Positions 5,940-62,803 of a stretch of DNA of 64,000 bases are shown one piece after another. Numbering within the stretch: position 1 is the first letter of the stretch; each line of letters begins with the position of its first letter. Source of the stretch: Spironucleus salmonicida (Eukaryota); NCBI RefSeq assembly GCF_000497125.1, contig NC_090601.1, positions 620,001 to 684,000 on the forward strand, in the 5' to 3' direction. The position numbers were made by a program, and so were the translations under genes. The notes beneath the pieces are model-generated. The model ran no database searches, was not told the DNA's origin, and saw only the letters and a list, made by a program, of their open reading frames with translations.

Positions 5940-7289
5940 TTATAAACTAATCTACTATATAATATATTAATATTAATAAAAATTAAAACACAAAAACTTC
6001 AAATAATTAGTTAAAATTATATTTTTTATATACATCTTTTAGTTAGCATGTTTGACCATGTAAAAAAATCCTTTATTCTAGAAAACTAGAGTATTTGTTA
6101 TATAAAAGTAGTAAAAGTACTTGTATTTATGCACGTATATAGATTAAAATGAATATAGTAATGTGTTATTCATTAAATCTCAGATACTCTCATTATTATT
6201 AATATAGTATATTTATAATTGGTGTGTGGTCAGGTTTAATATATTAACAACTAATTAAAATTAGTAATTCAGCTCAAATAGTCACATCAAATTCGTCGTC
6301 TATAGTATATGGGGATGCCATCAGTTCGCTGGGGAGACACCCCGCATGGTGGTCTTAGCTATGTTTCTTTCGCTCCAAATTTAAAATTACAGAAAATCCG
6401 AGTCTATCCATTTTGGAGACTCAGTATAATTGCAACAACATACTGAGTTTTATTAAGTTGAATTTACGGTAAATGATTGTGCGTATTGGCACGTAGTATT
6501 TATTATAATATTGGTTAAGGCGGGCAACAGTTTCTTTATTCTAGTGGCAGTAAAGATATTACCTAATATTAAAATATTAAATGTAAAGTTTTATTTGATA
6601 GATATAATGCCAATTCTTTATTATAACTAAAATTTATTGCGCACATTGTTCACAATTTATAGTAGAAACTATACTGTTTAAACATTATAAGGCCGAAAGT
6701 CTTTACATATCTGTTCCAAGGGCACTATCGGAAAATAAATGATTGCTATAGAATATCTAAGCATCTTCCTGCTGATATTCGAAATGCATAAAGTAGCATG
6801 AGGTCTAAACCTGCACAAGGCGGCTGAGCACAATATCCCGATAGTATCAAATCTCATAAAGTGTGCTGCATGCGTGCTAAGTAACAAAGTCGGCGAAGGG
6901 TTTGACTCTTAATAATGATAGCTCTCTTAAACTCGAGTTGCTGCAGAATATTGAGAGTAACGATTGTCCAGACGGTTTGAATCTTTCTACCGACCTGTGC
7001 CGCCCCTGTTAACTTATTGTCGATTCCAGCGGAAGCGGTGATACCGGAACCCAGGCAAACGCCTATGTTGTTCGTTCAGCGAATCTGCATTTACCCTAAG
7101 GCTTTAATGCGTATCAAGCTGCACGCCCATATTTTCATCAGCTTAGCCTCAAGATACTGCGCTCGGCTGGGCCCGATGCACTATCTGCACAAGCAATTTC
7201 TCGCAGCGAGCGCCCCAATCGGAGTCTCGCATTCCGCGACCACGTTCAGCCTATATATAGTATACTATCTTATGTTGCCCTTCCCAAAA

Positions 7290-9011
7290 ATGTCGCTGGC
7301 CGTCACCTTCATCCCAGTCGATTTCACTATTTTCACATCCCCTCGGCTCCAGCATTACAAGCAGAACTTGCGCGCCATCCGCGCCAAGTACGTCGTCAAG
7401 GGGCAGGTGCTGCAGCAGAAGATCCGCCCCCGCGAGCCGCTCACGCAGGAGGAGCTCCAGTCGCTGCGCCTCAACGAGCGCATGATCGAGAAGTACCCGA
7501 CCACCGACCTCTTCCTGAACCAGCTGCAGCAGGACTGCGAGACCCAGATCGTCTTCCTGTGCATCGGCGAGGACTCGCGCATGGTGCTGAGCTCGACCAG
7601 CTTCCCGCACATTCTCATAAGCGGTCCGCTGCTGTCCAGCGTGGTGGGGAAGCAGCTGCAGAACGTGGACTTTCAGCAGATCCTGGCGATTCTGCAGCCC
7701 CAGAAGCAGACGTTCTGGCCCGTGAAGTTCAGCAAGACTTCCTTCCAGGAGAGCCAAATCGACAACGACGACGGCGTGGTCCTCGAGAACGTGAACTTCA
7801 CCCAGGTCCAGGGGGTGAAGACCGTGAACAGCCTAGAGGTGCTGAGCCAGATCGTCGACGTGCTCCTGGCCCAGTTCCCGGCCAAGTTCCAGCAGTTCGT
7901 GTACCATTTCACTGCGATTTTGGTTTTCCACTCCAAATTCGAGGAGATCCAGAACTACGCGATTTGCGTGAACTTCCACACGGTGTGCCCGCAGGAAATC
8001 GCGCAGCATTTCGGCATCCCGCACATGGACATCCTGGACGTGAGAAACTCGACCCTGAACACGATTTTCATCAAGCTGAACCAGCGCGCGAACTCTGGGG
8101 ATATCCTGCAGAAGGTCGCCGAGAAGTCGCACATCAAGCCGTACCTGACCAAGAGCTACCCGGCGAACGCGTGCGACTTGCTGATTCCCGTGGCGAGCCT
8201 TGACAGCGAGGTGCCCCGGAGGTTCTGCAGCCAAAACCGCAAGTTGGTGCAGAACGAAGCGGTTTACCACATCACGAACAATATATACCAGATAGAAGAA
8301 AATAAAATTACCGTAAAGGAGAAAGTTCAGTACTACTACGTGCAGCTGGTCAACAGCAACCAGCTCGCAAAACTCGTGAGCCTGAAGGGCTTCCTGCTCA
8401 TTAACTCCGACGCGATTCCCAACAAGGGCGTGAGGGTCCAGCTGCAGGACTCGCTGCCCTCGCCGAGCATAACGGTGCCCTCGCAGGTCGTGTACAAGAT
8501 CGCGGCGCTCCTGGAGCAGATCCAGCCCGTCAAGGTGTTCGTGGACGCCCAGATCCGCGAGCTCACGCAGCTGCTGAAGGACACGCAGACCTCGCACCTG
8601 CTCTGCTGGGCCCTGCACAACCCCTTCGTGCAGGGCGTGGGCCCCATCCGGCTGTTCAACAACTACTGCATCCTGCTCTGCAACAACCAGGAGCAGGCGC
8701 AGGCCATGATCGGCAGCTGGAGCGGGAAGTGGGTCAAAAACCGCCAGATCTCGGCCGAGCTCTGCAACGACGCCGAGGGCAACGAGGTTGCGGGCCAGTA
8801 CTGCAAGCTTCAGGCCCAGCACTACCAGCCGTGCTTCTGCCTGAACTTCAAGGGTAAGTTCCCCGAGAGCGAGTTCCAGGGGGTGCGGACGGCCAAGGCG
8901 CAGGGCGAGATGACGCAAATCCAGTTCAAGGCCGAGGCGGACGCAGACGCGGGCTACTGCATGCTGAAGCGGCGGGGCGTGCAGGACCTGATCAGGATTA
9001 ACTTCGAGTGA
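7290..9011 (+). CDS. Hypothetical 573-aa protein with probable degenerate RRM-like C-terminal domain(s)
   Basis: GC3-rich long ORF. ATG 7290 follows a C-rich motif (gcccttcccaaaa); alternative ATG at 7272. YCILLCNNQEQAQAMIGSWSGKWVKNRQISAELC resembles RRM beta3-alpha2-beta4. The three differences I saw versus the second copy are synonymous. Ends GAG TGA. Confidence 0.8.
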   Translation: MSLAVTFIPVDFTIFTSPRLQHYKQNLRAIRAKYVVKGQVLQQKIRPREPLTQEELQSLRLNERMIEKYPTTDLFLNQLQQDCETQIVFLCIGEDSRMVLSSTSFPHILISGPLLSSVVGKQLQNVDFQQILAILQPQKQTFWPVKFSKTSFQESQIDNDDGVVLENVNFTQVQGVKTVNSLEVLSQIVDVLLAQFPAKFQQFVYHFTAILVFHSKFEEIQNYAICVNFHTVCPQEIAQHFGIPHMDILDVRNSTLNTIFIKLNQRANSGDILQKVAEKSHIKPYLTKSYPANACDLLIPVASLDSEVPRRFCSQNRKLVQNEAVYHITNNIYQIEENKITVKEKVQYYYVQLVNSNQLAKLVSLKGFLLINSDAIPNKGVRVQLQDSLPSPSITVPSQVVYKIAALLEQIQPVKVFVDAQIRELTQLLKDTQTSHLLCWALHNPFVQGVGPIRLFNNYCILLCNNQEQAQAMIGSWSGKWVKNRQISAELCNDAEGNEVAGQYCKLQAQHYQPCFCLNFKGKFPESEFQGVRTAKAQGEMTQIQFKAEADADAGYCMLKRRGVQDLIRINFE

Positions 9012-10510
9012 GGGGAAAGTTGGGGTTTGTGTATAGGCAGCTTGGGGATAGCGGGCAAGTCGGGGTTAGTTTCTTGGTGCTGTCTGCTGCGGAACGCGGT
9101 GCGAAATATTACAATGTTCATCCTGGTGCTATAGTGGGCTGACCTTACTCCCCACAAGCCTGGCGATGCCGAGGATGGCTGCAGCGTTCACGGTGCCAAG
9201 ATCCAGCCGTCATGCTGCTGGCACTGCTGCCTACTTCCCCGGGCCCTACGGAACCTAGTCAGAAGAAATACCGGCAGACCAGGGCTACCTAGCCCTGCAG
9301 GCTGCACTCAGTGCGGCTAGCAACATAAGTGCATGATGCTGCTGCCCGCATAATCGTTGCCTTACAGCTATCTAGCGACAGGCCGCGGCTCTGTGCTAAC
9401 TTGGTGGCCTTTCCTGGTCTACGGCCGTTGATACGAGCAGCGGGCAACATGGCCCAGGCTGGGAAAATGCTGGCAAGATATCTTCGCACTATCTAGATGA
9501 GCATGCATCTGCTGCGGTGCCAAGCTTGAGGTATCAAGATCAGGTATTTTGTCTCCTGCAAGACAGTGCAGCCGTTGTCACTCGCAACATGGTTATGAGA
9601 AACAGATCGAGACTGGCGGTACATGGCCACTGACCACACCCGTACCTGGGATATGTCAATTCGAACATCCCGCATGAGATGCGATTGGCTTGCATATCTT
9701 TCGCCAGAAAGTGGATACAGCACCTCCATATTCCATATAGCGGCGACGGTCCTCGACGATTGAACAATATAATTTAATGCTTTTTCTAGTATTGTGGTCA
9801 GAGCAGCCTACATTCAGCTTGCCAGGGTAGATTCTACCAACTGGGATTTTACCGTAGCAGGATAGATCCGAGACTCAGCAAACTGCCTTGAACACGCCGC
9901 GCAGAGTGGTAAGTTGTGCAAACACGGCTCTCGTGGACCCTCAGCGTTTGCTGATGCCGAGCTATGGGGTATTCTGGCGTATTGCGTTCGCTAGACTGTA
10001 GTATGGTGAAGGGGCGCCGCTGCCGTGATTGGGGATCCCAACCATACAATGTTTGAGATGCCACTAAGCCAACCGCCCATCGAACCGATATCCCCAGGTC
10101 AGGGGCAAGGCTCTCAGTGACGTCAGGGCTGAGAGCTGGGAAGCAAATCGTGCCTTGTACCGTGCATTAGTACCTGACGGCATAGCCGTAGCTGCGTGGG
10201 CCTTTGGGCAACGAGGGCTGGCCATCCTCCAGGGCGAGGACTCTGGGCCCACCGTGGCTTTTGGGTAGCCAATGGGGCTCGACGCCGACTCCGTGAAACC
10301 CGAATGCTTTCGTCGGGAGTCTAATTTAGGAATGCGGGTTAAATGTATATTAGGCATATAAGGAAACAACAATATCCCAATTTCCATAAGGGGGTATAAT
10401 ATGGTAATAGCTAACTACGGTTTCGCAGAATAATGTAATGTGGCGCGAATAGTATTATGCGAACTATATATTTTGAACAAACTCTAGTTTTTCCCTAACC
10501 GCCAGTATAA

Positions 10511-11533
<1,023 letters not shown>

Positions 11534-12150
11534 TGAAAGTTTATTCACGCAGGTGCGATCACGCGGGAGAGCCGGCTCCTAGCGGCCGCATGACCTGGTC
11601 TGGCTGAAGGTGCGTCTCGCCGTGCAGGACTGCCGGCCCTGGCACCGCGCCGGCAGCGTCCACTTGGCCGCGTAGAGGGCTAGCCCACATTTTTCGCTCG
11701 GCCCAGCTCGGGTATATAAGCGATGGAGTGGTGAGACAGCCTTCGCTTCGAAATGAGTTCTCTGGCCTTTAGGTGGCCCGACCGCAGCCCGTAGCGCCCC
11801 TGCCGCAGTCTGCGTGAAAGCAGCTGCTCTGCCAGGTAAATCGCAGCAGGGACGGGGCGGTGCAGCAACGAGGGATCCCTCGGCGGACTGTGGCGGAGGC
11901 CTCCTTCCAGCGCCCACTCCGGCATGGTAGCTCTCCTGCATGCGTGGCTCGATTAGAGTGGACGCGGGCAGGGACGAGCAACGGCGCATCCGTATCTGCC
12001 TAGCACGAGGGCAGGGCCAGAGTCATCCTTCGCCCCGGTTGCCCCGCACCCCTAGATCACCCCGTCCCGTGTTGCTGTCACGCCGCGTGGGCAATCTCTA
12101 GAGGGCAGGACGCGCGGCGCACCGTTGGCGATGCAGGCTTCGCTCGGAGG

Positions 12151-12192
12151 CCCATTCCATTCTATTTTATTCCATTCCCTTCCCTTCCCTTC
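12151..12192. repeat. Short degenerate pentamer tract (CCATT/CCCTT)n; mirrored at ~19835-19876
   Basis: cccattccattctattttattccattcccttcccttcccttc. Confidence 0.6.
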
Positions 12193-12872
12193 TCGCCGCA
12201 GCCCGCTGGGAAGCTCCCCTCCGAAAGCACAGGGACGGGTGGTCACCGGAGCTGCACATGCATGGTGCTAGTGGCGTGACGAGGTAGTTTCCGGTTGGCG
12301 GCACTGGCAGGGAGCTTGCTGCCGAGTGGGCGGCCCGTTGCTGGCAGTTAGTATAGGCAGGCTTGCAAAATAAATAAAATGTATTATATACTTAAAGCTA
12401 GTATTAGTAATAGAGTTTAAGTTACTTAACTTTATGAGTTGTATATGGCAAGGAGCTCTAGATAATTATTAGTATATTAACAAATAGTTTTAATATCTAA
12501 ATTATACTTTAAATATAAAACTATGTGATAATTAATATCATAAATTTTAATATAGTTATTAAAACAAATGTATATATTAGTTTAATAAAGTAACACTATG
12601 TTCATACAAAATAAAGTTTCAAAATTTTACCATAATGTTATTAAATATATCTAAAACTGTTAATTTATTAGTATACGATTAAAATATTTAAGACTATGAC
12701 TACAATAATTTTGTTATAAATATAAATACCAAGATTTTATTGACATTGTTTAAAACTTAATAGTATTAAGAATTATATTTATTATTTTTTATTAAATTTC
12801 ATATTATAATTTTGATGCCTGTAATAATAAATAAAATTCAAGTAAATGAAACTATAACAAAAGGTCATTCTT

Positions 12873-13112
12873 TCAATTTATGCCTAGATTCTATCGCACT
12901 AAGTCTACTAAGATATTATCTGAGCATGTAATATGAATTTTATCTGTTTACTAGAATCCGTCAAGATTAATGGCAGTATAAAATTTATTTTTTAGCGATG
13001 CTGTAGTTCTATTAGGGAAGTACTCATGTTAAAGATAGTTCCATTTGCATCCAAAAGTTTCAACCAAGTACACTAGAAAATTGACATCTGTTTGTCTCCA
13101 AAGTTTGTTCAT
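12873..13112 (-). CDS. Myb/SANT-like DNA-binding domain protein, 79 aa
   Basis: MNKLWRQTDVNFLVYLVETFGCKWNYLQHEYFPNRTTASLKNKFY fits the W-x19-W...FPxRT...LKNxFY Myb pattern. C-rich motif upstream of the ATG. Confidence 0.85.
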
Positions 13113-13712
13113 ATAGGTAAAGGAAAGGGAGTTTTGCAAAGTTATATATAATAGCAATTTATTAACATAGAATAATTGTAAATATAATTTTGCTTAATGA
13201 TCTAACATTACTATTAAAATTCAGATATAGAAAATATAAATATGATCTACAATAATTACAACATTTAAAAATTAATATTTTCAATTTCTAAAATTAATGT
13301 AAATATCTAGCGAAATAAATCTTTACTAATTCATGTTATTGTAAAAGTTAAATAATTTTATTTGTTGTTCTCGCGTTTTCTTTATCTGGATAAACTATAA
13401 TAAAACTAATAAGAAGTAATTAAGTAGACAAATACTAAAGACTATACAATTTATTATACATCTATTATATTAACTATATTATCGTACTAATTAATTTTTT
13501 GAAGTAAATATAATGGTTAATTTACACCGAAACTAATTTATTAGATTATACAAATTCTTTTTTGATTCCTTTTATTTATATATTACGTTATATATTAATA
13601 TACAAATAAATAATGTGATTTTCCTTTATATTATATCATATTATTAGCACTATTGCACATTAAAAAATCTGATTCTCATATTTATTATAAATAATATAAT
13701 ATATATCTAAAA

Positions 13713-14057
13713 ATGGAATCAAAGTTCAACATAACATTTGATAAACTTTAATCTGTTCTTCGCAAAAATACAACTAACCTTAATCTCTAATATAAAACTA
13801 ACTTGCAGTAAAATTATTCAAGATCGCTACTCTAGCACACCGATTTCAAAGAGACTCGAAACGAAATTTTCGGTTCCGCTCTGGCTCGCAAATCTAAAAT
13901 TATTAAGCCTAGCGTATTGAAAACTTTCGAAAATAGACCGATAGTGGACATAAAGAAAAGCTTATTAGAATCATTTAGTTTCAAAAATCAGCATGAAATT
14001 ATTGAAATTTAAGAGTTTAAGAAGATGGATTTTGCCGTTTTGTTTGAGGACGACTGA
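13713..14057 (+). CDS. Hypothetical protein, 114 aa (MESKFNITFDKLQ...FEDD)
   Basis: aaaATG to TGA open code-6 frame, GC above flanks. Confidence 0.6.
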
Positions 14058-14583
14058 TTAGCAGGATATATATATTAATATAGAGATAGGATTTAATTAA
14101 CTGATAGTGATGAAAAGTAGTAAACTAAATAATAAGCCTGATAAATATAAACAGTGATAGGGAAATTTTACATATAAACATAATAATTAAATTTTTATCA
14201 ATTTAGCGCAAGAACAGATTGTTCAGCAAATATTGATATTTAAATTAATGAGAATAATATCTTAATTATTATATTTTTTATATATTACTTAAATATACTT
14301 GAACAGTTGGTTTCTTTTAGCAAAATAACTAATACATACCACAATTATTTAATTTACATCTCAAATAACAATATACATCCGTCATTAATAAATATTAATA
14401 ATGCTAATTGATTTTGTAGAATTCTATGCTTACTGTTTATTCGAATATACTTGAATATATCTCACTATTAACATACGAGTTTCTCAATTTGTTATTTCAA
14501 ATCAATATAATAATGTACTTTACCAATCATTTTTAATCAAAAACCTAAAATCTGAACTCCCAGCACACCCCAAATACGATAAC

Positions 14584-16023
14584 TCAAACCTTCACTTCCT
14601 CAGCCTGCAATCTCTCTACCACCCCTTTTTCTCGCCTCACGAACCTTCCCACAACCGCCACACGGGTCACGTCGACGATCAGAAGCACGACCTCCTCGCC
14701 CACGCAGAATTGAAGCACTTAACCATCACCGCCCTCGATCAAAACGGTGATCTGGTTAGCAAGTTTTCCTGCGAAACGCCTCCCAAGAAACACTTTTTGG
14801 AGCTCCTCCAAAACCTGCACGCGGTGCACCTGGCCCACGAACTGCTCCCTGTTGAAGTCCTTCACTGCCAGCCTCGCTAGCTCTCCCGTGCGCTGCTTTT
14901 TCACCAATTACTGGATCTGAGTCATCGTGGCGGCCGGCGTGTTCGCCCTGGGGTAGTACTGCGTCACGTTCACGATGTCGAAATTGAGCTGATCCATCAG
15001 GCGTACAGACTCCTGGTGCTGCTCCTCGGTCTCGCTCGGGAACGCGCAGATGAAGTCCGTGGCGATAGCGAGCGCGGGCACGAGCGCCTTCAGCGATGTG
15101 TACAAGCTGACGTACTGCTCCACGGTGTAGCGGCGTCGCATTTCGCGCAGCACGTCGTTCGAGCCCGACTGGACCGGCAAATGCAGGAACTTGTACACGT
15201 TCCGGTGGTTCAGCACCGCTGCCAATTTTTCGGCCTTGTCGATCACAGATTCGGGGTCGGTCATGCCGATTCTGAGCATTTTGGTCGAGTTTCTCTGCTC
15301 GAAAAGGGCCAAAATCGCGGCCAAAATTTCAGCAAAATCTGAGCCGATGTCCAGGCCCCATGCGAGCGTGTCCTCGCCCGTGAGCCAGATCTCGGTGATC
15401 GTGTCGCTGTCCAGTCCCTGCTGGATGCGCTGCAAAACTTCCGCTTTGGGATGCGATTTGAGCTTCCCGCGCGCGTGGAACGTCTGGCAGTACGTGCAGT
15501 TTCCGAGGCAGCCAGTGCAGATCGGAATAATGTCGATATTCTCCTTGAAGCGGATGCTGGGCAGCGCGCTGATTTTTGACTCGATTTCGCTGAGCTTCGG
15601 GATGATGCTCTGAACGTCCTGGCCAGTGAGCTACTGGATGAGTTTCTGGTTCGTTTTGTCATCGATTACGCCGCTCAGGAAGCACTGACCGTCTGCAACG
15701 TATTTGTCGAGTCTGCCGATCTGCTTCAGCGCTTGCGAGACGCAACCGCCCAGGACTACCTTTTTCCCGGCATCCAGGGCCCGCGTGGCCTGAAAAATCG
15801 CCTTCTCCTCCGAGGGAGTTTTAACAGCGCACGAATTGATGTATATGAGATTTGCGGCATCGTATGATGTTATTTTTGCGCCTTGCGATGTCAAAAATGA
15901 CGCTATTTGGTCCGAATCAGACTGGTTGTGCGCACATCCCATAGTTATAACGAAGAAAGTGTAATTTTTTAGAAGTTAGGATGATGGTGTAGTCTGGACG
16001 TAAATCGCGTCTTCGAGGTCCAT
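14584..16023 (-). CDS. CDKAL1: Threonylcarbamoyladenosine tRNA methylthiotransferase (CDKAL1/e-MtaB family, radical SAM), 479 aa
   Basis: MDLED..., UPF0004 domain TMGCAHNQSDSD / INSCAVK / VLGGCV, radical SAM GCLGNCTYCQTFHARG, EIWLTGED, LHLPVQSGS, ATDFICAFPSET, C-terminal TRAM-like region. ORF-track fragments share one frame, joined by TAA/TAG. Confidence 0.93.
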
Positions 16024-16332
16024 TTGCGGAGTGGGTAATGGACATAAAAAAGCAAATAATCATTATTATATCAAATTAATAGTTAAAATTTATATACAAA
16101 ATTTTAAAAGGAGTACAATATCTTTAAAATCATGCATAACATGACTATATAAAGTGATAAAAAGGGTTATTGGTGGATAACTATATAGTTATGAGTTAAA
16201 GTATAATAATTTTACAACCACAAACTATAAATGATTAAATTTTCTAGACTAAAAAATTATAATAAATATATATTACAGATGTATCCTACCTATTTATTTA
16301 TCATTGAATAAAGAAATACTTCATTTTTTCAC

Positions 16333-16773
16333 TCAAATAATATGATAATAAACTTCTCGCATTTTTAATTTCTTTCTCTATTAGAGTACTATAGCAAAAG
16401 TAAGAAACAGCAGTAAAAATATAAGTGCTAGACAACCTCCGACTACCAAAAGTGTTTTAATACACTTGTTTATGGACTAAAAATATATAGTTTCCTCAAA
16501 TATATTATCATCATATTAGAGTTTTATATGTAGTGCTTTATCATGTGTTATGGATTCTAGCATATAATCACATTGTTTATCATCACATATTACCTTAATA
16601 ATATTAAATTCTTACATGATGAACTAAATTTCAACATTTTCTTGATTAAGTGACGAAACAGTCAGAATTGCAAGCTGATCTCGCTTGTATTCGCACCTCC
16701 GGTTATCAAGATTCAATTCTATACCATGAGTTGTCTTTAAGTCAAATATTGTGCAAGCTAAACTCATGAACAT
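16333..16773 (-). CDS. Small type-I membrane protein, 146 aa; paralog of 54868-55317
   Basis: MFMSLACT...RCE...VICDDKQCD...LLVVGGCLALIFLLLFLTFAIVL-QQRKKLK. Cys spacing, transmembrane helix and basic tail match the 54868 gene. Confidence 0.75.
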
Positions 16774-17212
16774 TTTTCAAATTATTGTCTTGTTAAATTT
16801 ACAATTTTATTATATTTCTATATATTCAGAACAATTAAATCTATTTAAATTATGTTAAAGTAACTTAGTTAAGTACAACCAAAATTTAGTGTCATATTAT
16901 TTATATAATGTTTTCCATATTATGTAAAATATTCTATTATTTTCAAAAGTTATGCGAAAAAATATCATTTCCGTGATATTATAATCCATATTTTATTATA
17001 TTTAATTTTAAAATTGTTGCTTTTTAAAATTTGAAAGTTTACATTTTACAGAAGCAGACGTAAATTGATAAACTATTTTATATTTCTTCTCATTTTCAAT
17101 CATAAAAATACTTCTTTCATCAACATTATCCTACAATAATTTATTAAAATAATAAACCATGCAGCAAAATAAAGCATCTATCTGAATATTTACAATGATC
17201 ATTAACCTCCTA

Positions 17213-17740
17213 TCACTTCATCAAATAACCCCTTTCTTTCTCCTCTTCCTCCAAAGCCCGGATATAGCTGTCCCTCACCTGTCGTATTTTGACCAACTTG
17301 GCCTGATTGGCGCCAATAATCTTTTTCTCCTCCTCACCGTAGCTCGTGAATACGCGATTTTCTGCCTCGCGGCGTCTCTGTGCTCTGATTTCTTGCTACT
17401 CAAGCCGATGTATCAGATCATCCCTGCCGAGCTTTTGCGCGATCCGCATTCCGGAGCGCTCGTCGGTCTCGAAGGCCTCACGGTGCGAAAACTGTTTGAT
17501 TTCCGAGGGCGGAATGAAAGGATTTGCTTCGAAATTTGGTATTTTGGGAGTATTTCGCTGCGTATGTGGGGCATTCTACATGGCTTGTGTTTTAAGCATA
17601 TTCTGGGGTGGTTGGCTAAAGCGCGTTTGAGTTGTTGTGAAATTATTTCTAAAGTTTATAGAATTAGATGTTTGTTGATTGTTAAGAATTGATGATCTAG
17701 GTACCGGGAGAATGGTTTTCTTCGTATCTTGATAAGGCAT
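17213..17740 (-). CDS. Hypothetical protein with charged helical C-terminus, 175 aa
   Basis: MPYQDTKKTILPVPRSS...RLEQQEIRAQRRREAENR...ALEEEEKERGYLMK. Ends AAG TGA. Confidence 0.7.
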
Positions 17741-17892
17741 TTTATAAATTAATGCGGAAAGAAATATTATCGTAAATATTATATTATAGTAATAAATTAA
17801 GAAAACTAAATAAATTATTATAATATAAAAAATAATAAATTATGTGAAATTTTGTATTATAATATTATATACTATAATCTGCTATGTTTAAA

Positions 17893-18324
17893 ATGACCTT
17901 TTTCACAGAGATTTCCTTAACATCAAAATTACCAGAATTTCTTCAGAAGAGAAAATAAGAAAACTCTTAAAGTTATAGTAAATTAAAACTAGTTACTTTA
18001 GATCCTATCCTTAATTAGCATTCTTTCTAAAGAAAGTTAGTATAGAAATCAAATGATATTACAACGGTTCAACCACTGAGAAGACGATAGAAACACCATA
18101 AAAAGAAGTAAGAATCTTATTAAGATGAAGATATATTAATTCTTTTTGGGATTTTAAAAGGTAAAGATGAATTTGCGACTTACTTGAAAGAAGTATTATA
18201 AGGCTCTTAAGAAAGATTAGGAAAAGCAGTAATTGATTATTTAAGAGATGTAGGTATTAATGGTGTAAATGATGAAGAGTAAGTTTAATATATTATTAGG
18301 TGTCTGAAATTTGTAAAGAAATGA
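17893..18324 (+). CDS. Hypothetical protein, 143 aa (MTFFTEISLTSKLPEFLQ...)
   Basis: Open code-6 frame from ATG to TGA with protein-like composition. Confidence 0.55.
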
Positions 18325-20493
18325 AAATTATTAGTAATTAATTCAGAATTTATTATTTTAATTATTTAAGTATAACATTTATTAAATTAGGCATAGTTAT
18401 ATTAAGTTTTAGACCATCTTGGACTTATAATAAGTAGATCAGCCTTTCTATTATTATTTAATAATTTCATAGTTTCTATATGAGAAGCAAAATTAAATTA
18501 TAAACTATAAAATTACTTACATATACATCTCATTATATCTAATTTTATAAGAGATGTTCCGGAAAATTTATACAAAATTCAGAATTACCGGTAATCTATA
18601 TTTTATATATATAATATTAATTTTTTGTTTCTAATTATTATTTATAAAATCATATAGTGCGAATATTTTAATTGTATAATTATATGGTTTACTTTTCATT
18701 GTATTTGAATAAACTATCAGATAATATGATAAATGATGCCTATGTTTAATACAAAAACTAAAATTATTGATATTATATATAACATTTATATAATATACAT
18801 TGCTAGTCATTTTTTAGAAATGATCTCAATAGGTAAAATGGTAATATCTTAGTTAAACACTTATGATTGTCCTTACTTTCAATCTATTCATCTATATTAA
18901 GATAAGAAAAAGTTAATTGTTGATGAAATTATTTCAGATGATGAATATGATATTACACTGTGAGGTTTACAATGAATTTTGTATAAATAACAGTTGTCTT
19001 AATAGTATAAAATATATTATAGTAATTTATTAAATTATGATAATAAATATAAAGCCCATTAGTAAGTACATAATTGCATCAAGTAGTAAATATTTTTTTA
19101 AATTTTTTAAGTTATTTATTTAAACATATATCTGATTTTAATAATATGAAATATGAATATAATATAAAAATAAATGTTCGAACACAAGAAAAATAAATCA
19201 AATAATATGATTAATATAAAATATAGTTTAAAAAGACATAACATTTAATGATAATGTTTATACAAACTAAATTTGAATAAATTTATAGTCTTATGAATTT
19301 TAGATGTTTTATCTAAATTAATGATAGTGTAATTTTTATAAATATAATTTTGTTATAAACTTTTAAAATTTGTTTCCTACTTCAATAAAATTTATCTGCA
19401 AAAATAAACTCATATAATCTTATATGAGTGTAAAGGGTAATTTTTTATTTAATTAAAGAAAATTGCTAACCCGGAAAATTTTAATATTTATTTATATATT
19501 AGTAGTCAATATTACATTTTATTATCATCTTAATTTATATAATCAAGATTATGATTATTTTATGTAATAAATATAAACTGTTTTATTAAACATATCATTT
19601 TTTTGCTAGATCTTAAAATAATTAAAAAAAATAATTCTTTTAATACATTTTATTTATTTTGCAAGCCTGCCTATACTAACTGCCAGCAACGGGCCGCCCA
19701 CTCGGCAGCAAGCTCCCTGCCAGTGCCGCCAACCGGAAACTACCTCGTCACGCCACTAGCACCATGCATGTGCAGCTCCGGTGACCACCCGTCCCTGTGC
19801 TTTCGGAGGGGAGCTTCCCAGCGGGCTGAGGCGAGAAGGGAAGGGAAGGGAATGGAATAAAATAGAATGGAATGGGCCTCCGAGCGAAGCCTGCATCGCC
19901 AACGGTGCGCCGCGCGTCCTGCCCTCTAGATATTGCCCACGCGGTGTGGCAGCAACACGGGATGTGGTGATCTAGGGGTGCGGGGCAACCGGGGCGAAGG
20001 ATGACTCTGGCCCTGCCCTCGTGCTAGGCAGATACGGATGCGCCGTTGCTCGTCCCTGCCCGCGTCCACTCTAATCGAGCCACGCATGCAGGAGAGCTAC
20101 CATGCCGGAGTGGGCGCTGGAAGGAGGCCTCCGCCACAGTCCGCCGAGGGATCCCTCGTTGCTGCACCGCCCCGTCCCTGCTGCGATTTACCTGGCAGAG
20201 CAGCTGCTTTCACGCAGACTGCGGCAGGGGCGCTACGGGCTGCGGTCGGGCCACCTAAAGGCCAGAGAACTCATTTCGAAGCGAAGGCTGTCTCACCACT
20301 CCATCGCTTATATACCCGAGCTGGGCCGAGCGAAAAATGTGGGCTAGCCCTCTACGCGGCCAAGTGGACGCTGCCGGCGCGGTGCCAGGGCCGGCAGTCC
20401 TGCACGGCGAGACGCACCTTCAGCCAGACCAGGTCATGCGGCCGCTAGGAGCCGGCTCTCCCGCGTGATCGCACCTGCGTGAATAAACTTTCA

Positions 20494-21516
<1,023 letters not shown>

Positions 21517-23015
21517 TTATACTGGCGGTTAGGGAAAAACTAGAGTTTGTTCAAAATATATAGTTCGCATAATACTATTCGCGCCACATTACATTATTCT
21601 GCGAAACCGTAGTTAGCTATTACCATATTATACCCCCTTATGGAAATTGGGATATTGTTGTTTCCTTATATGCCTAATATACATTTAACCCGCATTCCTA
21701 AATTAGACTCCCGACGAAAGCATTCGGGTTTCACGGAGTCGGCGTCGAGCCCCATTGGCTACCCAAAAGCCACGGTGGGCCCAGAGTCCTCGCCCTGGAG
21801 GATGGCCAGCCCTCGTTGCCCAAAGGCCCACGCAGCTACGGCTATGCCGTCAGGTACTAATGCACGTTACAAGGCACGATTTGCTTCCCAGCTCTCAGCC
21901 CTGACGTCACTGAGAGCCTTGCCCCTGACCTGGGGATATCGGTTCGATGGGCGGTTGGCTTAGTGGCATCTCAAACATTGTATGGTTGGGATCCCCAATC
22001 ACGGCAGCGGCGCCCCTTCACCATACTACAGTCTAGCGAACGCAATACGCCAGAATACCCCATAGCTCGGCATCAGCAAACGCTGAGGGTCCACGAGAGC
22101 CGTGTTTGCACAACTTACCACTCTGCGCGGCGTGTTCAAGGCAGTTTGCTGAGTCTCGGATCTATCCTGCTACGGTAAAATCCCAGTTGGTAGAATCTAC
22201 CCTGGCAAGCTGAATGTAGGCTGCTCTGACCACAATACTAGAAAAAGCATTAAATTATATTGTTCAATCGTCGAGGACCGTCGCCGCTATATGGAATATG
22301 GAGGTGCTGTATCCACTTTCTGGCGAAAGATATGCAAGCCAATCGCATCTCATGCGGGATGTTCGAATTGACATATCCCAGGTACGGGTGTGGTCAGTGG
22401 CCATGTACCGCCAGTCTCGATCTGTTTCTCATAACCATGTTGCGAGTGACAACGGCTGCACTGTCTTGCAGGAGACAAAATACATGATCTTGATACCTCA
22501 AGCTTGGCACCGCAGCAGATGCATGCTCATCTAGATAGTGCGAAGATATCTTGCCAGCATTTTCCCAGCCTGGGCCATGTTGCCCGCTGCTCGTATCAAC
22601 GGCCGTAGACCAGGAAAGGCCACCAAGTTAGCACAGAGCCGCGGCCTGTCGCTAGATAGCTGTAAGGCAACGATTATGCGGGCAGCAGCATCATGCACTT
22701 ATGTTGCTAGCCGCACTGAGTGCAGCCTGCAGGGCTAGGTAGCCCTGGTCTGCCGGTATTTCTTCTGACTAGGTTCCGTAGGGCCCGGGGAAGTAGGCAG
22801 CAGTGCCAGCAGCATGACGGCTGGATCTTGGCACCGTGAACGCTGCAGCCATCCTCGGCATCACCAGGCTTGTGGGGAGTAAGGTCAGCCCACTATAGCA
22901 CCAGGATGAACATTGTAATATTTCGCACCGCGTTCCGCAGCAGACAGCACCAAGAAACTAACCCCGACTTGCCCGCTATCCCCAAGCTGCCTATACACAA
23001 ACCCCAACTTTCCCC

Positions 23016-24737
23016 TCACTCGAAGTTAATCCTGATCAGGTCCTGCACGCCCCGCCGCTTCAGCATGCAGTAGCCCGCGTCTGCGTCCGCCTCGGCCTTG
23101 AACTGGATTTGCGTCATCTCGCCCTGCGCCTTGGCCGTCCGCACCCCCTGGAACTCGCTCTCGGGGAACTTACCCTTGAAGTTCAGGCAGAAGCACGGCT
23201 GGTAGTGCTGGGCCTGAAGCTTGCAGTACTGGCCCGCAACCTCGTTGCCCTCGGCGTCGTTGCAGAGCTCGGCCGAGATCTGGCGGTTTTTGACCCACTT
23301 CCCGCTCCAGCTGCCGATCATGGCCTGCGCCTGCTCCTGGTTGTTGCAGAGCAGGATGCAGTAGTTGTTGAACAGCCGGATGGGGCCCACGCCCTGCACG
23401 AAGGGGTTGTGCAGGGCCCAGCAGAGCAGGTGCGAGGTCTGCGTGTCCTTCAGCAGCTGCGTGAGCTCGCGGATCTGGGCGTCCACGAACACCTTGACGG
23501 GCTGGATCTGCTCCAGGAGCGCCGCGATCTTGTACACGACCTGCGATGGCACCGTTATGCTCGGCGAGGGCAGCGAGTCCTGCAGCTGGACCCTCACGCC
23601 CTTGTTGGGAATCGCGTCGGAGTTAATGAGCAGGAAGCCCTTCAGGCTCACGAGTTTTGCGAGCTGGTTGCTGTTGACCAGCTGCACGTAGTAGTACTGA
23701 ACTTTCTCCTTTACGGTAATTTTATTTTCTTCTATCTGGTATATATTGTTCGTGATGTGGTAAACCGCTTCGTTCTGCACCAACTTGCGGTTTTGGCTGC
23801 AGAACCTCCGGGGCACCTCGCTGTCAAGGCTCGCCACGGGAATCAGCAAGTCGCACGCGTTCGCCGGGTAGCTCTTGGTCAGGTACGGCTTGATGTGCGA
23901 CTTCTCGGCGACCTTCTGCAGGATATCCCCAGAGTTCGCGCGCTGGTTCAGCTTGATGAAAATCGTGTTCAGGGTCGAGTTTCTCACGTCCAGGATGTCC
24001 ATGTGCGGGATGCCGAAATGCTGCGCGATTTCCTGCGGGCACACCGTGTGGAAGTTCACGCAAATCGCGTAGTTCTGGATCTCCTCGAATTTGGAGTGGA
24101 AAACCAAAATCGCAGTGAAATGGTACACGAACTGCTGGAACTTGGCCGGGAACTGGGCCAGGAGCACGTCGACGATCTGGCTCAGCACCTCTAGGCTGTT
24201 CACGGTCTTCACCCCCTGGACCTGGGTGAAGTTCACGTTCTCGAGGACCACGCCGTCGTCGTTGTCGATTTGGCTCTCCTGGAAGGAAGTCTTGCTGAAC
24301 TTCACGGGCCAGAACGTCTGCTTCTGGGGCTGCAGAATCGCCAGGATCTGCTGAAAGTCCACGTTCTGCAGCTGCTTCCCCACCACGCTGGACAGCAGCG
24401 GGCCGCTTATGAGAATGTGCGGGAAGCTGGTCGAGCTCAGCACCATGCGCGAGTCCTCGCCGATGCACAGGAAGACGATCTGGGTCTCGCAGTCCTGCTG
24501 CAGCTGGTTCAGGAAGAGGTCGGTGGTCGGGTACTTCTCGATCATGCGCTCGTTGAGGCGCAGCGACTGGAGCTCCTCCTGCGTGAGCGGCTCGCGGGGG
24601 CGGATCTTCTGCTGCAGCACCTGCCCCTTGACGACGTACTTGGCGCGGATGGCGCGCAAGTTTTGCTTGTAATGCTGGAGCCGAGGGGATGTGAAAATAG
24701 TGAAATCGACTGGGATGAAGGTGACGGCCAGCGACAT
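23016..24737 (-). CDS. Mirror copy of the 573-aa RRM-like hypothetical protein
   Basis: Protein identical to 7290-9011 in the ORF track. Confidence 0.8.
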   Translation of the reverse strand: MSLAVTFIPVDFTIFTSPRLQHYKQNLRAIRAKYVVKGQVLQQKIRPREPLTQEELQSLRLNERMIEKYPTTDLFLNQLQQDCETQIVFLCIGEDSRMVLSSTSFPHILISGPLLSSVVGKQLQNVDFQQILAILQPQKQTFWPVKFSKTSFQESQIDNDDGVVLENVNFTQVQGVKTVNSLEVLSQIVDVLLAQFPAKFQQFVYHFTAILVFHSKFEEIQNYAICVNFHTVCPQEIAQHFGIPHMDILDVRNSTLNTIFIKLNQRANSGDILQKVAEKSHIKPYLTKSYPANACDLLIPVASLDSEVPRRFCSQNRKLVQNEAVYHITNNIYQIEENKITVKEKVQYYYVQLVNSNQLAKLVSLKGFLLINSDAIPNKGVRVQLQDSLPSPSITVPSQVVYKIAALLEQIQPVKVFVDAQIRELTQLLKDTQTSHLLCWALHNPFVQGVGPIRLFNNYCILLCNNQEQAQAMIGSWSGKWVKNRQISAELCNDAEGNEVAGQYCKLQAQHYQPCFCLNFKGKFPESEFQGVRTAKAQGEMTQIQFKAEADADAGYCMLKRRGVQDLIRINFE

Positions 24738-26099
24738 TTTTGGGAAGGGCAACATAAGATAGTATACTATATATAGGCTGAACGTGGTCGCGGAATGCGA
24801 GACTCCGATTGGGGCGCTCGCTGCGAGAAATTGCTTGTGCAGATAGTGCATCGGGCCCAGCCGAGCGCAGTATCTTGAGGCTAAGCTGATGAAAATATGG
24901 GCGTGCAGCTTGATACGCATTAAAGCCTTAGGGTAAATGCAGATTCGCTGAACGAACAACATAGGCGTTTGCCTGGGTTCCGGTATCACCGCTTCCGCTG
25001 GAATCGACAATAAGTTAACAGGGGCGGCACAGGTCGGTAGAAAGATTCAAACCGTCTGGACAATCGTTACTCTCAATATTCTGCAGCAACTCGAGTTTAA
25101 GAGAGCTATCATTATTAAGAGTCAAACCCTTCGCCGACTTTGTTACTTAGCACGCATGCAGCACACTTTATGAGATTTGATACTATCGGGATATTGTGCT
25201 CAGCCGCCTTGTGCAGGTTTAGACCTCATGCTACTTTATGCATTTCGAATATCAGCAGGAAGATGCTTAGATATTCTATAGCAATCATTTATTTTCCGAT
25301 AGTGCCCTTGGAACAGATATGTAAAGACTTTCGGCCTTATAATGTTTAAACAGTATAGTTTCTACTATAAATTGTGAACAATGTGCGCAATAAATTTTAG
25401 TTATAATAAAGAATTGGCATTATATCTATCAAATAAAACTTTACATTTAATATTTTAATATTAGGTAATATCTTTACTGCCACTAGAATAAAGAAACTGT
25501 TGCCCGCCTTAACCAATATTATAATAAATACTACGTGCTAATACGCACAATCATTTACCGTAAATTCAACTTAATAAAACTCAGTATGTTGTTGCAATTA
25601 TACTGAGTCTCCAAAATGGATAGACTCGGATTTTCTGTAATTTTAAATTTGGAGCGAAAGAAACATAGCTAAGACCACCATGCGGGGTGTCTCCCCAGCG
25701 AACTGATGGCATCCCCATATACTATAGACGACGAATTTGATGTGACTATTTGAGCTGAATTACTAATTTTATTTACTCCAGCAAATATTTTATCCTTAAA
25801 TAAATAGAGCGGTTCCCTAATAACATATGTTTGAAATAAAATTACATGATCTTAGTCGGTAAATTAATTATCATAAGTCTAGATAAGTTTTGACGCTGAT
25901 ATGATACCTTCTAAAACTATGTAATAATACGACAGTCTTTTATAAAATATTTTTATTTAATAGTTAGAATATTTATAATGATATACAAAAAAGTAGTTTA
26001 TATTAAAATTCAATGGTTTCTTATACACAACATAAAGTTTCTTAGTTTAATTTATTCTACAGAATCATATTTTATGAATTATAATTATATCGAGAATAA

Positions 26100-41106: not shown

Positions 41107-41229
41107 ATGCCAAAGCAGTTTTCGGAGATTCCCGCTGTAAACCTTTCAGCCCGTCTACGCACCGCTGCACTTCTGAGAGATAGCAATGGGTGCTGGCACC
41201 TGGAGGTCCTTGACCAGGGGTTTAAGTGA
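41107..41229 (+). CDS. Candidate 40-aa small ORF (MPKQFSEIPAVNLSARLRTAALLRDSNGCWHLEVLDQGFK)
   Basis: C-rich upstream tract (ttcccaattcccgctagcacccc), ends AAG TGA, frame preserved at 61428-61550. Confidence 0.4.
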   Translation: MPKQFSEIPAVNLSARLRTAALLRDSNGCWHLEVLDQGFK

Positions 41230-57044: not shown

Positions 57045-58587
57045 GATATATAAATTTTCATAAAACTAATTAAAAATTAAAATTTTCAAAGTATTGCAAT
57101 GCAATCATAAAAATTATCTCTATAGTTAATTTTACTAATTTTATGGTTTATGCATTACCCATTAATATAATAATTTAGACTATATAATAAAATTATAGCA
57201 TTGGTCAGTGATTTATAAATATATAGCAAATATTTATCATTTTATCGACTAATACTTATACTTAATAAATTTGATGTTAATATTTTGTATAAAATATTAT
57301 GTATATATAATTATTTTATAAACCATAGCTTCTTTCATAAATATTAATATAATTTTAAATTGATTTGTATATACGTCTGTAGAAATATTAGGATCCATTT
57401 ATGTAGTAAAATACATTAAATAGATTATGGTTATTGGAGAGATTCTAAGGATAAGCAAAACTAATAAAAATAAGTATTAATTTAATACTCATATCCTTAT
57501 ATAAATTATTTTATTAACACAAAACAACAGTAATACCGCCAATTAATAGAAACTATTAATGTTACTTTAATTTTATCATTAAACTATTATAAGTTTTTCC
57601 ATAATTATAAAAAATATTATGATTATTATAGATTTAAATTTGTTAAATTATTCAATATATAACGATAGTTATATAATATCAATTTAGTTTATAAAATATT
57701 ATTTATTATCTTAATCATGTAATTATATCTGAGAAAGTGTAAATAATTATATCATTTTGTTGGTTATGATGTTATTTCTAAATTTTAAATCCAAGTATCA
57801 TGAAATATAAATTAGCATGTTGCACCTATATTATATACTGGATAGAATAAATTATATTATTTGATTTAATAATAATCTAAATATAAAGTAGGAATAAAAT
57901 TAGTTTGATATTTACTAGAGTTGTGGTAATGCAATAAATTGAATGTTAGGCAGTAATATATTCTTTGTTATAGTATCTCGAGATTTTTGTAATATGTTTA
58001 GTAATATAAACACATTTTGCGATGTTCATTAATCAAATGTGTAAATTTTACAGGATTGAACAGCAACTCTTACTTTTAATTAGAGATAGTTGAAATAAGT
58101 GATAGGTTAATATTTTACTGTAAATGTTATTAGACAATTAAAATAGTATGTTACTGTCAGCTTTGCTGATTTTAAAATCGTATCCGCACATATTTAGTAC
58201 AATTATAGCACGGTGAAATTATACTCTACTGTACCGATATTTAATACAATAAGAAACAGAAACTCTTGTTAATTAGTAATTTAGATATACCTAACTCGAT
58301 AGCGAGTAAAAATAAGTTTTGGTAGAATGAGCAAGGTATGCCTCCTGGCGCATTTCGCTCCGAACACCAAAATATCGTATGACAAAAACAGTTTCAATAA
58401 ATACTGATAATATAACATTTAGTGAGGTAAAGAAATCTTTCCTTTTTTTAATATTTGTATATTACAATATTGCGGAAATTATTAGCCATTCCGATCTTTG
58501 AACCTGTACCACTAACTCAGTATATCCTCGATATTGGAGTGGTTGCTAAATTTGGCTTCTAAAGATCCGAATTCACGCTCCCTCAAA

Positions 58588-59616
58588 ATGGCTGATACTT
58601 GTACAACTGCATTAGCTTGCCCTGCCGGATTTGTATGCCCTACCGAGGCGACCGCTGCTGCTCAGAACTGCCTCAAGTGCACCGTTGCGGATTGCATTAC
58701 CTGCGCACCCGCCACGCTTGGAACCTGCACAGCCTGCAAGCCCAGCTTCATTCTTGAGGCTAATGCCTGCACTGCATGCTCCGCAGGTTGTAAAACCTGT
58801 ACTGCGGCTGATACGTGTACAGTTTGCAACGACGGCTTTATGCTTAGCGCCAACACGTGCACTGCCTGTCCTGAAAACTGCACTACCTGCTCTGCTGCTG
58901 ACACATGCACGAAATGCAATGCCGACTTTTTCTTAAAGAGCGCGAAATGTGATAAGAATGAGTGCGATGAAAAGACTCCATGCACTGGGGCTAAGTTTTG
59001 CGAGATTCTCCCAACCGGCAACAAATGCTAAAACTGCGATACCAAGTGTTCGACCTGCACCAGCTTGGCGAAATGCACTACGTGCGCAGTTGGTAACGAG
59101 ATGTCAACCGACTAGATCTGTATGGCTGCGTGCGCCGGATTGAAAGTAAACTAGGCGTGTGTAAATGATGCTGCAGTTGAATGTGGAAATACTGCTCAGA
59201 CGACCGCGTGTAGCTGTGGAGCCACTAGTAAGAGCTGCCGTACCTGCACTGCCCCACCCGTTCCTACCCCAGACGCCAACAAATGTACAGATAAACTGTG
59301 CACCTGTGTGGCTGGAACCCCTGCAACCTGTACTGGCTGCATTAATCCTAAAGATTATGAATTTTCTGCTGCTGCCTGTAAACCTAAGGATCCCACCACC
59401 TGCGGCACCTGCCTGCCAGGCTACGTCCTCAAGGAGGCCAAGTGTGAGGAGTGCGCCGCCGGCTTCGACAAGGTCGGCGAGTTCTGCTTCCAGACAGTTA
59501 CAGCTAATAAGCTCTCTGGGGGTGCCATCGCCGGCATCGTAATCGCAGTCTTGGTGGTCGTCGGCGGTGTAGGCGGTGGCCTCGCCTATTATTTCGTAAA
59601 GAAAGCGAAGAAGTGA
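58588..59616 (+). CDS. Cysteine-rich membrane protein (CRMP1/VSP-like), 342 aa, mosaic
   Basis: CxxC repeats, internal TAA/TAG=Gln, transmembrane helix plus VKKAKK. Confidence 0.95.
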
Positions 59617-60471
59617 CAGTTTGGTACTTATTATTTGTTGCGCAGCCTGACTGCATAAGGCTTGTGAGATGGTTGGGAATTGGTTACGCAAGGAATTTGT
59701 TGGAATGGGATGTGGAGAATGTCTAGTAATAATATAATTATATTTGATCCATTTTATGCAACATAATATATTTATTCCTTAATTGGATTAATTCTTAGAA
59801 ATAAATAAATTATTTTTTATAAAGTGCTATATGTTATATACACTTCCTATTCACATATGATGCCAAAATTTATTTATTATCATATTAGGTTATCTGGAAT
59901 TTCTATTATAAAAATATATAAAGCATTTAGATTTTTATAAAGTATGTATTATTATTGTTCATTTTTACGCTAGAATATCTAAATATAAATTAAAATAGCT
60001 AAATATGATAGTTTAGAATACTGCCCATTTTAATAGACTCTTATTTAATCTAATATTATTTATAATACTAAAATATGTCCAGATTGACATATTAATAATT
60101 TCAGGTTTAAATCATTATTTGAACGAAAAATTTATCTGATGATTACATTAAACCTCTTTATCACTATACCTTTAATTACATAGAATTTGAATTTCTAATA
60201 TCTAGGGATATCTTGTGTAAACTTATATACGAGTCAAAAATAATGGATGTATCATAAAAAATTATCAAAATTTAATTATTTTGCATATCATTTAAAATTA
60301 TATATCAACTTGAATTCAACCTATTCTACTCAGTTAAGATGCAGCGACCATCTTAATCTAGAAATTATATTTTAAATAATAATAGCAAAACTTAACTTTT
60401 ACTAAAGTTAATGTTGATAATTATCTCAATATAACTCTATCTTTGTGCTTTAACTATACCATACCCACGCG

Positions 60472-60741
60472 ATGATGGGCGCGGTGGTGGCTAGGACGGT
60501 CGAGATGCTGTGCCGCTACCAGCCCCACTTCACGGTCTGGGCGAACAGGATTGTGCCGTTCCGGGATGGGGAAGCGGGGTTTCAGCCGCTGCTGGACTGG
60601 GCCTTCCACGCGCAGGGGCTGGTAGAGATGGTGCGCAGGATGCGGTACGACAGCAGGGGTCGTACGGTGCTGAAGCACGTCGACTGGTTCGAGCGCAGCG
60701 TGCGGCCGCTCGGGTTCGAGTTCCCCCGCTGCGGCGGCTGA
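60472..60741 (+). CDS. 5'-truncated copy of the 40094-40414 gene (89 aa from internal MM)
   Basis: Duplication breakpoint falls 3 nt before an internal ATG ATG; may be a pseudogene. Confidence 0.45.
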   Translation: MMGAVVARTVEMLCRYQPHFTVWANRIVPFRDGEAGFQPLLDWAFHAQGLVEMVRRMRYDSRGRTVLKHVDWFERSVRPLGFEFPRCGG

Positions 60742-62803
60742 GTGAGGAGCAGAGTCACTGGCAACGGTGCGCGCATAAGCATTTCCACGTGTTCAAAACG
60801 CTTACTAGCAGCATTTGCATCAGCATAGCTCACTATCTTCCGCCATAGAAATGAAACTCAGGAGGCTCATCTGCTCTAGCTATGAGTCTTCCTATAGAAT
60901 AGAGCATCCGAATGTTTGATTCTTATTGAGCAGTTACAGCTTATCCGTGACATTAGGTGCAGGGTGGGTTGGTTACTGTGCGACCTAGACTATATGAGAC
61001 CATCCGAGGCCCATTTCTAATTTATTCAATTATTACTAGTATCTTTCAATATACATAATTTTTAATATTTAAACTGTATCGAATCTGCACTTAAGTATAC
61101 GACATAGTCGCAAATTAGCGAGCCAATGTGATGCATATTTTACAGCGAGATTCCTTTAATTTTTAATTAATACCGTATTGCAACCTAGTACTAAACATAT
61201 ATGTGCTGAGTTACTACATGTACTGTTGCTAGAAATTTACTATGGCGAACTCTTACGTTGGCCATCACGCAAGTAAGTAGTTTGAAAATACCCACCTAAA
61301 GAATACGAGTGCGGCTGCACAAGACTATTGCTTTGTTCCGGATCACAGATATTCCAGTATTATGCTGTAATCCCATAGTAAAGGTATACGGCTAACAACT
61401 TTCCCAATTCCCGCTAGCACCCCAATAATGCCAAAGCAGTTTTCGGGGATTCCCGCTGTAAACCTTTCAGCCAGTATACGCACCGCTGCACTTCCGAGAG
61501 ATAGCAATGGGTGCTGGCACCTGGAGGTCCTCGGTCAGGGGTTTAAGTGAACGGGCAGCTGACTAATGGGTCAAACAAGAGCGGTTGCATACGCGCAGTA
61601 AGGTACTATTATCTCACCGCCTCGACCTTGCAAGGGGCAGCTAGGCGCGCAGTCAAACACTGTATCCCGGCAGCCCCATGGACGCTCGCCTAGCTCAGCA
61701 TGCCCGTTATGGCCTGTGCTATTTTGTTGCTGCGCCCTAATAAAGCGCTGCTGACGACTTATGCTATGAGGTCATCCCATAAGGCAGCCTTTCGCTGTCA
61801 GAGACCTCACTGGTAGCAGTTGGAACTGGGCAATGCGCAGTCGGGCCATGCTAGGGATGGGAGCCAGCGACTGGACAGCGAAAAGTACTTCTGGGCGTTG
61901 CAAAAGAATGAATATGCTTCTGGAACTGGGCTGCAGTTAGAATATCCCCAACTTCAGTACTCTCCCGCAGCATCTCCAGACTATCATCCCGCACCAACCA
62001 TGGTCTTCTAAAGACAGATAGCAAAATCCTAGATCGCAGGTTTGGCTCTCTCGTGCTGGACAGTTCCTGGGCAAGGGAGCTTCGCAGCTGTCCCACCCAG
62101 ATGCCGATATACGGTATTGCGTTGGGCTGGTTTACAGTAGCCTGCTGAAGGACTGCACGCGGCGTCCTCTTCGAGCCATGGGGGTGGGGAGGAAGCTAGG
62201 GGAGTACGGCCGCGCCCTATTACTAAAGATAGCCAGGTGTCATGCTGCCAGCCCGGCCAGTGCAAGTGCAAGTGTCCGCCCTCTCACGCATCGCCAAAAC
62301 TCAGCTCTTCGTCGTCCTCCTCGGAGTCGGACGCGCGCGCGAAGTCGCTGGCGGCCGACGTGTTTTCGAGGGCGCTTCCGAAGAGCGCGGGGGGCATTGT
62401 GGAGTGGGCAGAAACTTCGGCTAGGGTGGACGAGGGCGAGGGCACAGAGAAACTGCAGGACGAAGTGCGTATTGCGTGGCATGGGATGCTACCCGGACAG
62501 CTAAACGCACGGCACGGTGTGGCGGCCACGAAAGTGCTTGACGCAGACTAAGCAATCGTTGTATTTAATTCCGTAAAGTGGAAATGGTATATTACCTTGG
62601 CCGGACGATCCACGCCGATTTGAAAAACTCAAAATCTATTTCCACCTAGGGCACTGGCAGGCCGGTCTGGCTAGAAAACAGTCACCTCACTCGCGCATCC
62701 AGCTCCGTGGCGAGCCAGCTGGCGGCACGATAGAATGGTACCCGCACCAGCACAGAGGCTCGGCCGAGATGAAGTGCCATGTCCAGCGCGCAGGCCACCC
62801 GGC

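Follow-up and report, generated by a model that had tools for sequence, protein, structure and literature searches.

The window is a 64,000-nucleotide stretch of the Spironucleus salmonicida genome (C6:620001-684000). Positions inside it are counted from its first letter, and places elsewhere in the same genome are given as C6 positions. Genetic code 6 (table 6) fits the window, in which four genes, here called A, B, C and D (Table 1), belong to a single subfamily of cysteine-rich membrane proteins. Genes A and B are each a 1029-nt open frame, and C and D lie in the two arms of a palindrome. Three of the 19 differences between the arms fall within 11 nt inside gene C (11196-11206), and five more are found at 12062-12096. 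Both arms also contain a 648-aa frame (7065-9011 and 23016-24962) that has no TAA or TAG codons, a third-position G+C of 0.87 and no Pfam match. Furthermore, a direct repeat of ~3.6 kb at 96% identity (40131-43706 and 60458-64000+) carries a minus-strand frame (42477-43169; 62804-63463) with a third-position G+C of 0.96, while its long plus-strand frames gave no match in Pfam.

Table 1 Genes, segments and repeats discussed in the text (positions in the window).
Feature	Position	Strand	Remarks
Gene A, CRMP-1	58588..59616	+	342 aa, 50 Cys, 16 CXXC, KKAKK end
Upstream region common to A and B (B copy inverted)	58210..58587	+	Ends in A-rich start context
Segment 1, aa 1-245, B-type	58588..59323	+	706/736 to B
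Segment 2, aa 246-268, neither B nor C	59324..59391	+	Closest 54/68, C6 ~836.8k/845.4k
Family-wide conserved 26 nt (PTTCGTCL)	59392..59417	+	Identical in 10/21 other copies
Diagnostic tract common with palindrome CRMP	59418..59492	+	74/75 to C
Short linker (QTVT) and start of membrane helix, B-type	59493..59566	+	68/74 to B
Helix end and KKAKK tail, private to A	59567..59616	+	At most 38/50 elsewhere; TGA stop inside AGTGA
Gene B, sister CRMP-1, 342 aa	32455..33483	-	Open frame, table 6
Gene C, CRMP-1 in left palindrome arm, 323 aa	10562..11533	+	Block at 11300-11400; probable donor
Gene D, copy of C in right arm	20494..21465	-	Block 20627-20727, identical to C's
Palindrome	6252..25775		6135-nt arms 6252-12386 and 19641-25775; 19 differences; GC-rich

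CRMP-1 proteins were defined as cysteine-rich with three or more CXXC/CXC motifs (PMC3916229), and gene A belongs among them by its cysteine content (50/342 residues) and motif count (16 CXXC and 2 CXC). It has a C-terminal membrane helix, with a hydropathy peak of 2.5 at residues 314-332 and a helix at residues 311-341 in a low-confidence structure model, and the KKAKK that follows fits the CRMP-1 pattern [KR][KR]X[KR][KR]. The first 60 hydropathy windows peak at 1.09, with no hydrophobic stretch. In its cysteine motifs, helix, basic end and clustering gene A resembles the described CRMP-1 proteins of S. salmonicida, which have a CXXC-rich ectodomain, a C-terminal helix and the same basic end, and which are clustered and lack an obvious signal peptide (PMC3916229; PMC9509377). 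The AGTGA in which its stop codon lies is a signal described in PMC3916229, where two of three tagged CRMP-1 members were seen at the cell body or surface and one in an ER-like pattern. A Pfam VSP match (E 4.8e-7, 29.4 bits) stays below the cut-off of 31.4, and the CRGKA tail of Giardia VSPs is absent. In the predicted model (mean pLDDT 74, pTM 0.36) short beta-hairpins follow one another in a chain; the best Foldseek matches of the model are furin-like repeats (R-spondin Fu1-Fu2; E 6e-4, ~110 residues), a weak and local likeness (TM 0.19 by query, rmsd 6-7) that has no bearing on function.

The exchange tract in gene A

The sequence-only reading had described gene A as a mosaic of four segments, and when we recomputed the identities to B and C, all four were found where it had placed them. 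The match between A and B begins at ~58210, and its ~380 upstream nt contain 6 substitutions and 2 one-base indels; their coding regions align without gaps and are near-identical up to the end of segment 1. Segment 2 matches neither local type, with 38/68 to B and 32/68 to C. The next block, 59392-59492, is identical to gene C in 100/101 positions, the one difference being at 59445, whereas gene B reaches only 75/101. Over their aligned 5' parts, A and C are just 57% identical (50-65% in sliding windows). After the block, gene A returns to the QTVT type of gene B and then ends in its private KKAKK tail. All 50 cysteines of A align with cysteines in B and the register is kept, while 41 residues differ, 16 of them in the first 245 and 21 in residues 246-294. 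The exchanged block encodes residues 269-302, where the final cysteine modules precede the membrane helix, and thus the change sits near the membrane.

Within segment 1, 18 of the 30 A/B differences lie in two clusters, 58593-58667 and 58883-58912. The second of these packs ten differences into 30 nt, and the B version there is similar (30-31/40) to the internal repeat before it and to other paralogs; it is a possible micro-tract with no clear donor.

The exchange between A and the palindrome CRMP that had been proposed is borne out by the pattern of sites. In the triplet of A with B and C, gene A has 297 B-type and 48 C-type sites. Twenty-five of the C-type sites are consecutive (59394-59475), and these are all the sites in the block that separate B from C; no run of 25 was reached in 200,000 permutations, in which the maximum was 9. 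Synonymous codons are identical between A and C in 32/33 cases in the block, compared to 46/102 upstream. These tract tests were run with our own scripts, and sites were treated as independent. In clade tests A+C was rejected for 58948-59323 (p-AU 4e-5). A+B stood at p-AU 0.33 in the block (0.59 over 59418-59492) and at 0.074 in segment 2, and was rejected in neither; on the segments of 47-101 nt the tests have little power, and their sole rejection was A+C in segment 2 (p 0.005). Support in the segment trees was low, and neither the trees nor the short-segment clade tests were used as proof.

Could the block be alike with no exchange at all, through selection and saturation toward C-ending codons, or because it is uniformly conserved in the family? 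For the first 26 nt this is true: 10 of the 21 other aligned copies have 59392-59417 exactly as in A, and the median over 231 pairs is 24/26. Because this stretch is so widespread, only 59418-59492 is diagnostic, and the left exchange point cannot be placed more closely. Over the remaining 75 nt, in contrast, the median is 57/75. Here A-C is the top of 120 pairs (0.99; median 0.73), with C at 74/75 to A and the next best gene at 61/75, and genes with an equal 31/33 third-position G+C reach just 58-60/75 to A. We therefore regard a likeness without exchange as extremely unlikely. At the right end, the last C-type site is 59475 and 59476-59492 are identical in A, B and C, so that the right exchange point lies within these 17 nt. 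The tract is 58 to 101 nt long and has short perfect identity at its ends, the 26-nt conserved stretch on the left and the 17 nt on the right. It is a short near-identical stretch between diverged paralogs, silent sites included, with a switch back.

An assembly or polishing chimera between paralogs might also leave such a block, which is short enough for short-read mis-mapping. This objection was checked in public sequencing runs, in which four of the eight runs (two studies) that hold the stretch, X1, X4, X5 and X6, were compared over 58151-59950. Among the contigs listed, those of X5 and X6 cover 59262-59560 with zero differences from A, and those of X1 and X4 cover 59262-59492 with one difference, the letter of C at 59445. 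The left junction is bridged in 4/4 runs, and both junctions together with A's private letter are found in 2/4 (contigs listed); the gene B form is a separate contig in 4/4. X1 and X4 are perhaps not independent of the assembly, and the junctions and the private letter recur in the second study. None of the contigs listed spans the whole of gene A, and phase is lost in such graph contigs over two stretches, of 53 and 47 nt, where A and C match exactly. However, either phasing of the graph still yields a mosaic gene. With the junctions present in these contigs, we consider a chimera very unlikely.

Shuffling across the C6 cluster

In a protein search of the genome, 20 places on C6 ranked first, ahead of C2 relatives at 43-49%, and genome searches showed further clusters on C2, C5 and C9. 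A tract census of C6:620-694 kb and 750-860 kb gave 29 tail-anchored matches, of which 22 copies were aligned (5 degenerate and 2 frameshifted copies were left out) and 16 paralogs entered the statistics, after 3 twins and 3 short 3' pieces were set aside. An exact longest-run test on 483 variable columns found 32 significant fragments in 26/120 pairs, involving 13/16 genes after correction, and a triplet test, in which the best four triplets per gene were scored, flagged the same 13 genes. When nine segments of each gene were painted with partners at 90% identity or more, ten paralogs had 3-7 partners, genes A, B and C had 2 each, and three genes had 0-1. Gene A is thus a clear mosaic and not an exceptional one; it is among the least shuffled. 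Gene B is patchwork too, as its tail matches that of gene C at 46/50. Gene A, then, carries a real, well-bounded conversion tract in a heavily shuffled cluster, one that also holds truncated CRMP-1 copies.

The region C6:750001-860000 is a large nested array of inverted and tandem repeats (15.4 kb, 10.5 kb and 7.6 kb at ~98%) with ~24 CRMP-1 copies and fragments. Copies there are far more shuffled than gene A and have as many as 7 partners at or above 90%. In a sub-lineage at C6 ~761.6k, 795.1k and 801.4k the membrane helix is divergent and the basic motif is followed by a short extension; this sub-lineage shares no significant tract with the other paralogs. Over the part aligned to 58948-59613, third-position G+C in the 16 C6 paralogs correlates positively with how many paralogs have exact 30-nt tracts in common with the gene (Spearman 0.65, p 0.007, the genes not being independent); it is 0.22 in the isolated copy at C6:691.6k and 0.88 in the palindrome gene. 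Such a correlation would fit G+C-biased conversion.

Sources and probable direction of transfer

Gene A had also been read as an assembly of at least three paralog sources, and of these two were recovered as near-identical partners, B and C/D. A third was not. Segment 2 is closest to the copies at C6 ~836.8k and 845.4k (54/68, ~160 kb away) and ~768.4k (51/68), which share the FSAAAC motif with A. Set against B, 21/26 informative sites in segment 2 side with the 836.8k gene; the excess over the background of the 836.8k pair has a Fisher p of 0.012, or ~0.18 when corrected for the best of 15 paralogs, and the triplet test against B is inflated in this segment, giving p below 1e-4 for 5/6 third genes tried. 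Its third positions are AT-rich (5/23 G+C), and 8/12 private changes go from G/C to A/T. The genome search found no close donor for segment 2 (at least three other places, 80-82% over 79-89 nt), none for the tail (at least ten other places at 78-85%; best 38/50) and no match to the 3' flank of A beyond ~59622. The segment probably goes back to an earlier tract, from a donor that has since changed or vanished. As ancestry, three sources are probable; as three separate donors they are unproven.

Transfer of the block from C to A is the direction we find probable. Third-position G+C in A is 31/33 in the block compared to 158/309 elsewhere, the largest step among the 16 genes, while in C it is 32/33 compared to 233/290. 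The argument from composition is weakened because most paralogs are G+C-rich at third positions in the block (steps up to 0.34). Mean identity to ten remote paralogs rises in the tract from 0.61 to 0.77 for A and from 0.70 to 0.79 for C, and stays at 0.60-0.61 for B. The opposite course, in which A is native, B the main recipient, the block went from A to C/D and residues 246-302 of B came from a lost donor, strikes us as rather unlikely, although several results lean its way. The 169 nt of this region in B had no relative above 72% in the genome search, the best triplet with C as child puts 59418-59586 on the A side (corrected p 1.2e-5), which fits transfer from the A/B lineage to C, and the clade of A and B was not rejected in the block. 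However, the identity of B to remote paralogs in the tract, 0.58-0.61, is about the same as the A/B background of 0.60-0.61, as expected of native sequence; it is the block of A that is out of line, at 0.77, and the block is present in both palindrome arms. As the B version has no close relative, no reciprocal product of the exchange is seen; none was found in the genome search and painting, and it could have been lost.

Mechanism and place among variable surface families

The explanation we favour with good confidence is that ordinary short-tract ectopic gene conversion patched the ends of sister CRMP-1 genes, probably from C to A. A and B would be sisters from an inverted duplication, whose membrane-proximal ends were then patched by homology-directed repair between paralogs of the kind that would act throughout the whole chromosome cluster. 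In the most recent event, 58-101 nt would have been copied between the palindrome gene (C/D) and A, the copying entering within the 26-nt conserved stretch and leaving within the 17 nt common to A, B and C. Segment 2 would probably derive from an earlier transfer, out of a relative of the 768k/837k genes, and have drifted toward A+T since, and the tail of A may be its own drift or come from a donor outside the matches found. Because such swaps keep the cysteine register, their products would be in frame and would likely fold. That the conversion was non-reciprocal, its direction and the order of events are what we infer from these patterns. The genome has one Rad51-family locus (Rad51 or Dmc1; E 8.9e-100). 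Among 19 window frames scanned in Pfam there was no reverse transcriptase or other mobile-element family, and copying through RNA is thus without local support.

We also weighed whether CRMP-1 conversion is ongoing in infection and the main source of antigenic variation, as in trypanosome mosaic VSGs; we consider this unlikely. In T. brucei, mosaic VSG insertions average 41-55 bp with 9-13 bp of identity, and the gene A tract resembles them in its length, its short perfect identity at the ends and its donor from the same subfamily (PMC13233330). Dicer, Argonaute and RdRP were reported as not found in S. salmonicida (PMC3916229), and the cluster is heavily shuffled and has truncated copies. A bolder form of the idea, for which we would give equally slim chances, starts from the lack of these RNAi parts, which in Giardia are linked to VSP switching. 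Spironucleus would then rely mainly on continuing short-tract conversion to vary the CRMP-1 coat: entire cysteine modules would be exchanged at conserved, G+C-rich seeds, the 26-nt PTTCGTCL stretch being one, the palindrome copies and truncated genes would serve as stable donors, and gene A would be a recent product. The VSG events, in contrast, were observed in infections, in the gene being expressed; they depend on RAD51/BRCA2 and gave measured immune escape, mostly at the N-terminal top (PMC13233330). Gene A offers a single fixed record in the genome, and a membrane-proximal one. Of the earlier proposal that conversion generates new surface variants, the analysis bears out the segmental exchange but not the surface variants; the block lies beside the membrane helix, and the first 245 residues of A and B differ at just 16. 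In the four public runs from two studies, all 37 places with other letters in the contigs listed coincide with differences of B (36) or C (1), and no new CRMP form was seen among those contigs, in which rare variants are dropped; X5 and X6 are putative RNA runs. VSG-type variation would further involve a single expression site fed by a silent archive, and neither emerged from the sequences analysed; antigenic variation by CRMPs was left open in PMC3916229 and is described as untested in PMC6397501.

Ordinary conversion between paralogs is also what has been published for Giardia, and the contrast that had been drawn with Giardia VSPs fails on this point. GENECONV fragments and identical inverted pairs were described among the vsp genes of Giardia intestinalis (PMC2996952), and "segmental gene conversion" is stated for VSP and pseudo-VSP genes of G. 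muris (PMC7641422), work cited for it in bioRxiv 10.1101/2022.03.07.483299. The vsp genes share with the CRMP-1 cluster such fragments in 3'-anchored subfamilies, identical inverted pairs and arrays with truncated copies (PMC2996952, PMC7641422), and differ in their CRGKA tail, signal peptides and RNAi-linked single-gene expression. The two families expanded separately (PMC3916229). For CRMPs, gene conversion that possibly expands the repertoire was suggested at the close of PMC9509377; the accessible parts of that paper and of PMC3916229 contain no tract mapping and no named donor or recipient genes. A literature search, largely of openly available papers and their main texts, found none that mapped CRMP conversion tracts.

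Trading of tracts is to be expected of a surface-protein multigene family, and the process is already published for Giardia VSPs. What gene A adds is base-level evidence that CRMP-1 genes trade short tracts, which for this parasite had previously just been suggested in print. It also provides a clean pair, A and C, with both exchange zones, and names a 16-paralog cluster in which the rate would be measurable. The finding would matter much more if the shuffling takes place during infection.
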